Below are positions 2,695-20,998 of a stretch of DNA of 64,000 nt, piece by piece. This DNA is from a virus (Duplodnaviria; Caudoviricetes). The first letter of the stretch is position 1, and every line of letters begins with the position of its first letter. The notes beneath the pieces are model-generated. The model was given only the letters and a program-made list of their open reading frames with translations, searched no databases and was not told the origin of the DNA. Both the position numbers and the translations under genes were made by a program. The stretch covers positions 6,179 to 70,178 of IMG/VR virus record IMGVR_UViG_2869271264_000002; one strand, given 5' to 3'.

Positions 2695-2726
2695 CAGCAA
2701 ATCCTTGTTGGGGAGGCCAGAAACGC

Positions 2727-2750
2727 AAATGGCGGTCCGAAGACCGCCAT
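2727..2750 (-). terminator. intrinsic terminator-like hairpin closing the pentamer array
   Basis: ATGGCGGTC-TTCG-GACCGCCAT, perfect 9-bp stem with UUCG loop, followed by TTGCGTTTC (weak U tract). Confidence 0.7.
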
Positions 2751-2769
2751 ATCCTTGCAAAACAGCAAC

Positions 2770-2879
2770 TTGCCACGCCCTGCGCTACCTAACCTTGGTC
2801 AGCGCCGCCTAACCATGCCGCGCCGGACCACGCCATACAATGCCCGACGATGCGCAGCCTGATCGGACCGTGAGCAGCC
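2770..2879 (-). ncRNA. GGY-NN pentamer array, putative guide RNA of the adjacent RAMP protein (VIPR-like)
   Basis: 22 in-register 5-nt units: GGCTG CTCAC GGTCC GATCA GGCTG CGCAT CGTCG GGCAT TGTAT GGCGT GGTCC GGCGC GGCAT GGTTA GGCGG CGCTG ACCAA GGTTA GGTAG CGCAG GGCGT GGCAA; 14/22 start GGY, 19/22 have G at position 2, 22/22 have a pyrimidine at position 3; begins at the RAMP stop codon and ends before a terminator. Confidence 0.8.
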
Positions 2880-3490
2880 TAAGCTGCCTGTAGAAGACCG
2901 CCGCCGTCTTTCACTATTTCCCATCGGGAAACAACGAAACGACCGAAGGGGCCCTTTCGGGCCGGACGAAAGTCGCCGAGCCCGATCTTCTTACCAGCGT
3001 CATCCACAACTGCACGGACAAGCGATGGTGAAAACATTGTTTCGTCCACGTCCAAGGTGAACTTTGCCGCCCATACGTCTACGCGCGGTCGATGACACAT
3101 GATGCGGCCGCCAGTCGACGGGATAACGACCGAACGGCTATCGACTTCCCATTCCGTCAGCGGATCACCATCAAGGTCAGTCAAATTGCAGACAAGGTCA
3201 TCAACCATGATGCCGGCAGGAATGAGTGATGTCCGCAGCGTGGTTAGTTTCGATTTCCCAGCCTTGTGGAATGTTCCCGCCGCAATGATGCACGCGAAAA
3301 TGTTCGGGCCGGGGATATAGAGTTTGCCGTCACCATCAGCATACCGCTTCGGCTCCGCCTGCTGCCTTGGTGTCCCGCGGTCGCCCTTGAAATTCACCGA
3401 TGTACCGCTTGAAACGGCCACTTCGTTATGCTCGGTGAACCTGTTCATCAACAGGGGCGTAATGCCCTGAATGGTCACTTGGATTTTCAT
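2879..3490 (-). CDS. stand-alone RAMP-superfamily (Cas7/Csm3-like) protein, 203 aa
   Basis: N-terminal strand IQVTIQGITPLLM, YIPGPNIFACI (cf. Csm3 YIPGSSLKG), C-terminal glycine loop GLGDFRPARKGPFGRF; GAGGA RBS before ATG 3490; no other cas genes or CRISPR array in the window. Confidence 0.8.
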   Translation of the reverse strand: MKIQVTIQGITPLLMNRFTEHNEVAVSSGTSVNFKGDRGTPRQQAEPKRYADGDGKLYIPGPNIFACIIAAGTFHKAGKSKLTTLRTSLIPAGIMVDDLVCNLTDLDGDPLTEWEVDSRSVVIPSTGGRIMCHRPRVDVWAAKFTLDVDETMFSPSLVRAVVDDAGKKIGLGDFRPARKGPFGRFVVSRWEIVKDGGGLLQAA

Positions 3491-3531
3491 TCGGTCCTCT
3501 GGTCGCCTTGCCATCCGCCTAAATGGCGAAT

Positions 3532-3591
3532 AACGATTATCGTTTAGGCGAACATATTTCGTCAGTCTAGACTTGTCAAACGATTTTCGTT
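3532..3591. promoter_or_regulatory. paired palindromic operators AACGATTWTCGTT
   Basis: AACGATTATCGTT at 3532-3544 and AACGATTTTCGTT at 3579-3591 flank the promoter; degenerate copy at 3551-3563. Confidence 0.65.
3551..3579 (-). promoter_or_regulatory. sigma70-type promoter of the RAMP-array unit
   Basis: TTGACA (3579-3574), 17-nt spacer, TATGTT (3556-3551) on the minus strand. Confidence 0.7.
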
Positions 3592-3624
3592 ATGGTTATC
3601 GAAAATCACTTGCAAGGAGAAACC

Positions 3625-3861
3625 ATGACAATCACTCCAGAGCAATGCCGGGCCGCTCGCGCTCTCCTCGATATCTCGCAGGCAGATATGGCAGATATGG
3701 CATCAATCAGCCTCAGCACGCTCCGCAACTTTGAGGCCGGAAGATCCACTCCAATGGCAAACAATTTGACAGCACTCGAAGAGGCCATAAAGCGCTCCGG
3801 TGTCATCCTGCTGGCGAAGAATGATTTAATAGACGGCGGCGCTGGAGTTCGACTCTCTTAA
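3625..3861 (+). CDS. XRE-family HTH transcriptional regulator
   Basis: ITPEQCRAARALLDISQADMADMASISLSTLRNFEAG...GGAGVRL; AAGGAG RBS; divergent from the RAMP gene. Confidence 0.9.
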   Translation: MTITPEQCRAARALLDISQADMADMASISLSTLRNFEAGRSTPMANNLTALEEAIKRSGVILLAKNDLIDGGAGVRLS

Positions 3862-4454
3862 CCGTCGACCAATCCGCCGTGCATCCTGATGACGACGTTG
3901 CAGACGTAGGGCTGGAAGTAGATCAATGTCCTCGCCATCGAGGCGACTTCGCTTGCCTCGAGGAATCTCTTCTTCGGGTGCTCATCACGCCGGCGAATGA
4001 GGTTGTCGACGTCAGTCCTGGATGTCGTCATGCGGCAGTCGCCGATGATCCCCGGGGAGATGCCGACCAGTTGCTGATGCTGCGTCAGACGCTTGGTTTC
4101 GATGTAGCTGTGGATCAGCGCCTTCGATGAAGCGTAGTTCTCATCGAATGATCCTCGGTATCCGCTTTCGGACCCAATGATGCAGACCCGGGCGAATTCG
4201 TTGCCGGCGAAGATCAGGTCGCAGGCGCGGACGATCGAGGTGTAGTTTACCTCGATGCCTTCCTTGATCTCGGCTTCAGTCTGATCGTCGTACTTCTTCG
4301 GACGAAGCAGGCCCTGGCAGAACAGATAGCGCTGCGCGTCGATCGGGAAGTTCGGCTCCATCGGCTTGCCGTGGACGGTGACTTCGGCAGAACGGAGAAG
4401 TGTGCGGAACGCTTCGGCTATGGCACTGCGCCAGCCGGTGATGACGATGGTCAT
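3858..4454 (-). CDS. short-chain dehydrogenase/reductase (SDR)-like oxidoreductase
   Basis: IVITGWRS, IEVNY, IIGSESG, YASSK (YxxxK), ISPGII. Confidence 0.75.
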   Translation of the reverse strand: MTIVITGWRSAIAEAFRTLLRSAEVTVHGKPMEPNFPIDAQRYLFCQGLLRPKKYDDQTEAEIKEGIEVNYTSIVRACDLIFAGNEFARVCIIGSESGYRGSFDENYASSKALIHSYIETKRLTQHQQLVGISPGIIGDCRMTTSRTDVDNLIRRRDEHPKKRFLEASEVASMARTLIYFQPYVCNVVIRMHGGLVDG

Positions 4455-9764: not shown

Positions 9765-9841
9765 TGGTTGCGGGAAACGGATTCGAACCGCTGTCCTTCT
9801 GGTTATGAGCCAGACGAGCTACCAGGCTGCTCTATCCCGCG
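9765..9841 (-). tRNA. tRNA-fMet (CAT), initiator type
   Basis: cloverleaf with C1:A72 mismatch, anticodon arm TCTGG-CTCATAA-CCAGA, GGTTCGAATCC, encoded CCA. Confidence 0.93.
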
Positions 9842-10164: not shown

Positions 10165-10240
10165 TGGTGCCACCGGGGTAGAATCGAACTCCCGGCCCGC
10201 TGCTTACGAGGCAGCCGCTCTACCACTGAGCTACGGCGGC
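10165..10240 (-). tRNA. tRNA-Thr (CGT)
   Basis: GCCGCCG/CGGTGGC acceptor stem, GCTGC-CTCGTAA-GCAGC anticodon arm, TTCGATT, encoded CCA; one bulged A in the T stem. Confidence 0.88.
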
Positions 10241-20771: not shown

Positions 20772-20998
20772 GGCGCCGGCGGCCTGGCGTCGACGAGGTG
20801 CGACCCGACGACGACGAGACCGACGAGCGGCACGACGACGAGCGGCGGCACGGCAAGGCGACGAGGCGCGGTTGCGATTGATCCGATTGAGAATGAAGGC
20901 GACGGCATGAGCTTGGCCGTGCGGCGCGGCGCGGTGCGACCTGGCAAAGCGCGGCGCGGCCATGCGCTGCAGCTGGACGGCGCGGCGTGGCACGGCAT
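20772..20998 (+). repeat. degenerate GGY-NN pentamer tract (second, orphan array)
   Basis: 20923-20998: GGCGC GGCGC GGTGC GACCT GGCAA AGCGC GGCGC GGCCA TGCGC TGCAG CTGGAC GGCGC GGCGT GGCAC GGCAT; looser GGC/GACGA units upstream. Confidence 0.55.

Follow-up and report, generated by a model that had tools for sequence, protein, structure and literature searches.

The segment between positions 2697 and 3873 of the window (by which we mean the whole stretch of 64,000 nucleotides analyzed here, which belongs to a temperate Mesorhizobium phage with a genome of 70,178 bp) is very probably a VIPR cassette whose guide RNA is aimed at the SDR allele of VIPR-less (pro)phages of Mesorhizobium, and not at the allele of the phage that carries it. 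The elements of the cassette and of the adjoining gene are the following.

2697 to 3873, no strand assigned: the whole VIPR module (XRE gene, promoter, vipr, vrRNA and terminator), a 1,177-bp indel delimited by blastn against the VIPR-less provirus locus L012.
2719 to 2750, minus strand: intrinsic terminator (9-bp stem, UUCG loop, T tract) that closes the vrRNA, from a terminator scan.
2751 to 2774, minus strand: 3' handle, formed by unit 22 (GGC-AA), degenerate units and the conserved GCAAGG motif, common to loci L001-L011.
2775 to 2884, minus strand: guide tract of the vrRNA, units 0 to 21, (N-G-Y)NN pentamers recognized by their phasing and by the pyrimidine at position 3.
2879 to 3490, minus strand: vipr, encoding a 203-aa RAMP/Cas7-like Vipr (P0001), from profile and structure matches.
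3551 to 3579, minus strand: promoter-like site TTGACA-17-TATGTT upstream of vipr.
3625 to 3861, plus strand: XRE-family HTH gene, 78 aa, divergent from vipr (Pfam HTH_3, 4e-9).
3858 to 4454, minus strand: SDR-like oxidoreductase gene of a glycan cluster (weak adh_short match; the Mesorhizobium homologs are named SDR family oxidoreductase).
3865 to 3932, plus strand: resident, diverged copy of the target site, the last 22 SDR codons, abutting the module edge (guide scoring).

VIPR (Viral Interference Programmable Repeat) systems comprise a Vipr protein and a vrRNA in which GGY triplets alternate with free dinucleotides (NN); from computational, in vitro and in vivo work it is known that the NN pairs recognize double-stranded DNA while one base is passed over in each unit, that this skipped base falls mostly on the wobble position of codons, and that either strand can be read, with no PAM (10.64898/2026.04.26.720920). 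Natural targets were accepted at an NN match of at least 80%, and no self hits were found at that level (10.64898/2026.04.26.720920). The systems used as experimental exemplars are type II, from the Escherichia phage SUSP1 and from a Pseudomonas fulva prophage (10.64898/2026.04.26.720920, 10.64898/2026.04.26.720927, 10.64898/2026.10.15.759431). The targets reported are resident prophages, satellites and other VIPR loci, and for those vrRNAs that target other vrRNAs the self-match scores are below the non-self scores (VIPR preprints). The earlier note on this DNA derived the same code from the letters of the array and presented it as new; given that it was published in 2026 (10.64898/2026.04.26.720920), the mechanism is not novel.

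The protein P0001 has no match in Pfam; it is a member of phrog_4652 and has more than 2,000 homologs. A profile of 19 of these homologs matched one solved structure, PDB 36pp, "SUSP1 Vipr protein" (E 9.9e-12), which the single sequence also matched at 1e-5, and an AF2 model of P0001 (pLDDT 82.7) had Csm3/Cas7 chains as its best Foldseek matches (prob 1.00). In a pairwise HMMER alignment the G-loop GDFRP lies opposite GDWRP of SUSP1 Vipr, and the thumb motif HRPR opposite YRPI, so that D173, F174, R175 and R134 of P0001 face D177, W178, R179 and R138. In SUSP1 Vipr these residues of the G-loop (D177/W178/R179) and of the thumb (R138) hold the two guanines and the pyrimidine of each repeat (VIPR preprints); among the 19 homologs D173, R175 and R134 are invariant and position 174 is F, Y or W. 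On the match to SUSP1 Vipr, the conservation of the RNA-holding residues and the Csm3/Cas7-like fold, the module is assigned by homology to the VIPR systems. The features used for this assignment were homology to Vipr, the GGY-holding residues, a vrRNA, hypervariable NN, a natural target at 80% or more and no self target at 80% or more, and each of them was found. A periodic RNA of triplets and 2-nt spacers bound by a TRAP-like or another protein had been a candidate, and it was dropped after the protein was recognized as Vipr by its match to PDB 36pp. Vipr resembles the backbone protein of class 1 CRISPR systems (Csm3/Cas7), its best structural match, in that it polymerizes along the guide and its thumb breaks the duplex periodically; unlike those systems, the locus has no CRISPR repeats and no other cas genes, its RNA periodicity is 5 nt and not 6 nt, and in VIPR only two of every five guide bases pair.

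The array consists of 25 phased 5-nt units on the minus strand (2879 to 2755), beginning at the vipr stop codon. Every unit combines a triplet with a free dinucleotide after it; in the triplets, position 3 is a pyrimidine in 25/25 units, position 2 is G in 21/25, and position 1 is G in 14/25 (about 56%). A vrRNA is expected to have at least four tandem GGY-NN units beside vipr on a transcribed strand; here there are 25 units, with a predicted promoter upstream of vipr and a predicted terminator after the array. Unit 0 (GCT-TA) overlaps the last codon and the stop codon of vipr, and its dinucleotide pairs with the TA of the stop codon in the SDR alleles of VIPR-less phages. Unit 22 is mismatched in every target allele examined, and the vrRNAs of L001-L011 finish with the same ..AA GGCAA / GCAAGG motif. 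The NN strings differ among the arrays of L001-L011 and L097-L099, while the scaffold and the 3' handle are common to all of them; hairpins equivalent to the terminator of the window also follow the arrays of L001, L002 and L006. Rfam gave no match for the array, and in the window it matched only two tRNAs (9768-9841 and 10168-10240, both on the minus strand). A second GGY-like tract (20918-20972) was rejected as a vrRNA, being GC-rich, flagged on both strands and of low complexity in its NN.

The window cassette shares with the published VIPR systems a lone RAMP protein of about 200 aa, homologous to SUSP1 Vipr, in which the G-loop D-aromatic-R and the thumb Arg are conserved, a GGY/NN pentamer RNA that adjoins the gene and has a conserved 3' end, a guide that fits the 1-nt skip code with its skips on wobble positions, a small partner gene for a putative DNA-binding protein, and a target in a competing mobile element at 80% NN or more, with no self match at that level. 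In contrast to the 9 to 16 units of the characterized systems, the window has a single long guide of 21-22 units; the triplets of its scaffold follow the looser pattern N-G-Y, its guide starts within the vipr stop codon, and the 3' end shows a conserved GCAAGG handle followed by a plain terminator hairpin. In the SUSP1 clade the conserved, structured 3' tail is a pseudoknot. The partner gene encodes a divergent XRE protein, and the host is Mesorhizobium, both unlike the published exemplars. An identical prophage occurs in the assemblies GCA_001618825.1 and GCA_029269425.1, and the VIPR-less relatives likewise have Mesorhizobium hosts. XRE homologs (31-44% identity) lie divergently upstream of vipr in L001, L002, L003, L005 and L006, and also in L097 and L099, so that a divergent XRE HTH accompanies vipr in at least eight loci, the window included. 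This XRE protein, a conserved partner of vipr, may be a Vap-type accessory protein or a regulator of the module. The vipr-XRE intergenic region (3516-3624) holds the promoter and the paired palindromes pointed out by the earlier note, an arrangement that fits a putative autoregulation of the cassette by XRE. Pfam and PHROG matches revealed only XRE and vipr in the module, and no nuclease gene.

Read as NN-skip-NN, the guide had been said to match the 3' end of the phage's own SDR gene. The 22 array dinucleotides given for it proved correct when the array was re-read on the minus strand, as did the 27/44 nucleotides, the 10/22 identical units and the run TA GG TG AA TA; the start had to be moved from 3867 to 3868. 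The skipped bases are indeed third positions of SDR codons (gene at 3858-4454, minus strand), and the decoded peptide was right, given that related phages encode TLLYFQPYISGTIIRMHGGLH at the site. The self match at 3868-3932 amounts to 27/44 (61%) for units 1-22 and to 28/44 (64%) for units 0-21. Whichever strand is scanned, no other site in the window or in the 70,178-bp genome scores as high as this 27/44, and the second-best reaches 23. No self target at 80% or more exists anywhere in the 70,178-bp genome, the best being 27/44 (61%); hence the resident allele would be spared as predicted, with 61-64% under the published threshold of at least 80%, which is a bioinformatic criterion and not a measured tolerance.

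When the order of the units was shuffled, as had been proposed for a null, a genome-wide maximum of 27 or more appeared in 1.6-1.7% of the trials (p = 0.017); taken alone, the self match is therefore marginal. This p of about 0.017, together with a score below the published 80%, would agree with the match being a coincidence and the real target of the array lying elsewhere. What decides against such a coincidence is the comparison with relatives that lack the cassette. SDR homologs with DNA available were two IMG/VR proviruses (L012 and L013) and four proteins that gave six loci (L087-L092), these from Mesorhizobium assemblies and read sets. No Vipr homolog was found in the complete proviruses that hold L012 (108 kb) and L013 (113 kb), nor was vipr present in the gene calls within 2.5 kb on either side of the SDR gene in L087-L092. 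At the homologous site of these eight loci (L012, L013, then L087 to L092) the guide scores 39, 36, 36, 36, 39, 39, 39 and 37 out of 44, and the next-best position in each locus 22-24/44. In the frame of units 1-22 the VIPR-less alleles thus match at 36-39/44 (82-89%), in frame and over the published 80%; in the corrected frame (units 0-21) they reach 37-41/44 (84-93%) versus 28/44 (64%) for self, and for units 1-21 the count is 36-39/42. None of the alleles sampled is a perfect target, and the same three half-mismatches recur in all of them.

A chance self match would give about 23/44 or less in the homologs and 36-39/44 was seen, which supports what had been deduced from the window, namely that the guide favors the SDR allele of module-less relatives (36-39/44 in eight loci) over the resident one (27/44). 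Within the footprint, self and L012 differ at 13 sites of codon positions 1 and 2; self mismatches the guide at 13/13 of them, L012 carries the guide base at 12/13, and the guide sides with self at none (joint p about 8e-13). With scores of 36-39/44 in all eight VIPR-less loci, and with 12 of the 13 differences resolved in favor of L012 (rounded, p about 1e-12), we give practically no credence to coincidence. The search with the gapped pattern that had been suggested was carried out with a 9-unit sub-pattern in viral, genome and metagenome collections; it recovered the contig of L012 and otherwise returned chance matches of 22-29/44. In the one-genome-per-species and metagenome collections this sub-pattern gave chance matches only, with no perfectly matching allele, and a scan of genome contigs with the SDR alignment found nothing.

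A different reading of the partial self match is autoregulation, in which pairing with the 3' end of the resident SDR gene would tune the glycan/packaging operon of the phage itself. In its favor, the array and the best site of the genome are 1 kb apart, and this site is inside the operon that the cassette interrupts. But the non-self alleles match far better than self, in published systems self hits are absent and self-match scores are lower, and a regulator is expected to co-evolve toward its own site and not away from it, so that we consider autoregulation very unlikely. The preferred reading continues to be that of a guide directed at the VIPR-less allele.

The site that the guide reads abuts the insertion point of the cassette. 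By blastn, the window and L012 are fully syntenic on either side of the module, at about 80% identity, with homology resuming at 3874 and at 2696; where the window has the 1,177-bp module, L012 has 22 bp. The target footprint starts at 3865 and homology to L012 stops at 3874, hence the target abuts the cassette edge, and the claim that the site lies at the module junction is borne out by this alignment. In the VIPR-less loci no other gene separates SDR from the next glycosyltransferase gene, except for a small MazE-like gene in L087 and L088; the site extends to the SDR stop codon, which leaves about 15 bp up to the next gene. Downstream, a tightly packed string of co-oriented genes (two glycosyltransferases and small ORFs) runs into the TerL gene in the VIPR-less loci, and in the genome of the window phage the string continues through TerL into the portal and prohead protease genes. 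A blastn search of the region against GenBank phages gave no match.

The junction of SDR and the next glycosyltransferase is a general insertion hotspot at which the C-terminus of the SDR varies with the insert: a MazE/AbrB-like gene in L087 and L088 (L087:3088-3309), a Methyltransf_21 gene in L094 (L094:3091-3750) and the VIPR cassette in the window, the junction being empty in L012 and L089-L093. Other mobile elements occur nearby. The window carries on its minus strand a gene for a 298-aa GIY-YIG/NUMOD3 homing endonuclease (299-1195), which forms a second indel with respect to L012 (window 1392 to 268 in place of about 130 bp) and is present in some relatives (L094, L097) and missing from others; a nuclease-type selfish element thus lies 1.5 kb from the VIPR cassette. 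Outside the window, an HNH endonuclease of 355 aa is encoded between the genes for the portal and the prohead protease (G000:C1:1406-2473; L027), which brings the endonuclease-type elements of the packaging region to at least two.

The resident allele is particularly diverged in the footprint. At codon positions 1 and 2 the identity of self and L012 is 70.5% in the footprint versus 88.8% in the 174 upstream codons (Fisher p = 0.003), while third positions are equally diverged (0.64 in the footprint, 0.62 upstream). No other stretch of 22 codons in the SDR gene is as diverged as the footprint with its 13 differences (mean 5.4, maximum elsewhere 11). For a guide that skips wobble positions, first-base switches in six-fold-degenerate codons are the only synonymous changes that are visible. 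Such a first-base difference affects 3/4 of the conserved Leu/Arg codons of the footprint (TTG vs CTG, AGG vs CGG, TTG vs CTC) and 4/26 of those upstream; pooling the window with L001, the switches are found in 5/6 conserved Leu/Arg codons of the footprints versus 4/32 outside, with a Fisher p of 0.0014 in a test that is post hoc. The closest relative of the resident SDR gene (L093, 91% identity) has an empty site and a self-like CNVV allele that scores 28/44, and L094, with the methyltransferase gene at the same junction, has a diverged allele that scores 25/44. The proposal that the window self allele diverged only after the arrival of the cassette was given up as unsupported, the VIPR-less L093 having a CNVV allele too. 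Since L093 already carries a self-like, poorly matched allele, the resistant allele may be older than the cassette in the lineage of the window.

In order to place these observations within the clade, vrRNAs were called in 14 other loci (L001-L011 and L097-L099), and roughly 38 guides were examined. About six of the 38 vrRNAs have a partial match in their own locus that is better than shuffles; all of these keep the reading frame of a plausible ORF, whose third codon positions are the ones skipped, and five of the approximately six matches lie within about 130 bp of the array or of the cassette edge. For instance, the downstream vrRNA of L001 scores 23/32 on codons 6-21 of the adjacent tape-measure gene. 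The same site in L020, a syntenic locus without the 1,166-bp cassette whose flanking proteins are more than 90% identical to those of L001, scores 29/32, and 26/26 for the guide part. Over the first 40 tape-measure codons, L001 and L020 differ at codon positions 1 and 2 only by the six differences of the footprint, among them Arg AGx vs CGx and Leu TTx vs CTx. All five homologs have the guide dinucleotide at the Arg, Leu and Lys/Arg codons of the site, which indicates that the L001 states at these codons are derived. Divergence of the self allele after arrival of the cassette is, on these alignments, better supported for L001 than for the window. The vrRNA of L006 scores 18/22 on its own flanking gene versus 21/22 on a 71%-identical homolog (L100), and the self allele shows a Ser TCN to AGY switch and a Tyr to Phe change; this case is weaker because the background divergence is high. 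In the window, L001 and L006 the self alleles have 3-16 mismatches more than the rival alleles, and the distance from the target to the indel edge is 0 bp in the window, about 20 bp in L001/L020 and about 125 bp in L006.

Judging from these comparisons, targeting of the insertion flank is recurrent but not universal, because most vrRNAs, including all seven of L097-L099, show nothing comparable. No nearby partial self match was detected for these seven, the upstream vrRNA of L001 had no target among the loci examined, and the genes that flank L005 and L006 had no relatives in IMG/VR. The vrRNA of L007 (L007:3763-3827) matches the region of an ARIHIAK-type motif at the start of a 149-aa gene present in several unrelated phages (L033-L040); the homologs that carry the motif score 62-73%, with none above 73%, and this guide may be aimed at a conserved motif instead of a single allele. 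The organization of the arrays is also variable. In L004 (2805-4352) there is one vrRNA upstream of vipr and seven downstream, each ending in GGCAA-GGCAA, and in L005 (2558-4517) the vrRNAs are interleaved with protein genes; two of the latter, d3 and d4, have partial matches (20/24 and 19/24) to the 3' end of the gene that each adjoins.

These loci bear on two further readings of the window. The first is that of a historical relic, in which the guide was derived from, or selected against, an ancestral local sequence, the flank then drifted, and the match has no current function. The adjacency of guide and target would be natural if guides arise from local DNA, and no perfect target was found. 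Against it, the scaffold, the handle, the promoter, the terminator and an intact, highly conserved vipr have all been kept, the same arrangement occurs at three unrelated insertion sites (window, L001 and L006), and the self-specific changes of L001, derived with respect to five homologs and confined to the footprint, resemble selection and not drift. A relic is, in our opinion, very unlikely.

The second concerns the molecule that is recognized, which could be the mRNA of the rival and not its DNA. The guide of the window is antisense to the SDR message, and pairing of Vipr-vrRNA with single-stranded RNA has been observed in published structures, where full filaments require DNA as the third strand (VIPR preprints). 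The guides of L001 and L006 are sense to their target genes and are therefore unable to pair with their mRNA; silencing of double-stranded DNA on either strand has been published. Taking together the orientation of these guides and the DNA requirement of the filaments, mRNA as the physiological target seems highly improbable, and we retain DNA of the VIPR-less allele as the target in what follows.

A mechanism can be proposed from the homology to SUSP1. Vipr protomers would polymerize along the vrRNA and bury the N-G-Y triplet of each unit, leaving the NN pairs exposed to read double-stranded DNA two bases on and one base off. The approximately 22 informative units correspond to the final 21 codons of the rivals' SDR gene and its stop codon. 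By analogy with published repression assays, a Vipr filament at the site in the rival would block the transcription of its packaging genes when both phages share a cell. Given that the target abuts the insertion point of the cassette itself, the guide and the resistant allele would be inherited together. RNP assembly, silencing, a competitive benefit and a selective reason for the adjacency of guide and target are what we infer; the protein homology, the anatomy of the array, the matches, the indel and the synteny are observed directly.

The target of the window differs from those of published VIPR systems, in that it is the allele, in close relatives, of the gene next to which the cassette itself is inserted. 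We did not find, in the main text of the VIPR preprints, a guide set against the cassette-less allele at the edge of its own cassette together with a linked, diverged self allele; the main text of 10.64898/2026.04.26.720920 does not contain the words "homing", "allele" or "insertion", nor that of 10.64898/2026.10.15.759431 "homing", "allele" or "empty site".

In T-even phages, free-standing homing endonucleases carry out intronless homing and marker exclusion: an intergenic selfish cassette attacks the cassette-less allele of close relatives at a site that adjoins its own insertion point, and the carrier genome has a linked, polymorphic version of the site that is resistant. The window is similar in that the recognition site lies beside the insertion point and is altered in the carrier genome; it is different in that the module has no nuclease, recognition relies on RNA, and the action expected is silencing and not cleavage. 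The homing-endonuclease-like logic put forward in the earlier note is consequently well taken as to the target that abuts the insertion point and the diverged, linked self allele, but in the absence of a nuclease from the module the likeness is an analogy of logic and not membership. In published work Vipr is a binding protein (10.64898/2026.04.26.720920).

As a tentative proposal, which we regard as possible rather than probable, the cassette of this Vipr clade could be a nuclease-free, RNA-guided analogue of a homing endonuclease that directs its guide against the "empty-site" allele, is accompanied by its resistant flank and drives through the population. The immunity of that flank would include synonymous switches (Leu CTN to TTR, Arg CGN to AGR and Ser TCN to AGY). 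Rivals would be silenced in mixed infections and only those recombinants that received the cassette and the flank together would survive; if this is true, the cassette would thereby be driven through the phage population.

Insertion-adjacent targeting that discriminates between alleles, and a route to immunity through six-fold-degenerate codons, may be new parts of VIPR biology. As a natural example the locus is clean, since its sequence shows the guide, the target, the insertion point and the resistant allele. The conflicts published for VIPR involve satellites, resident prophages and other VIPR loci; here the opponent is the cassette-less version of the phage's own neighborhood, which links VIPR to the population genetics of selfish elements, i.e. 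poison-antidote linkage and marker exclusion. The locus also gives an explanation of how a phage can be spared by its own guide, and suggests an escape route that the argument of a "wobble-proof" guide misses, that is, the six-fold-degenerate codons; the matched allele pairs described here could be used for measuring the mismatch tolerance of VIPR in a host that is not pathogenic. If true, the reading of the cassette as a homing analogue would show the workings of self/non-self discrimination by VIPR, and of escape from it.
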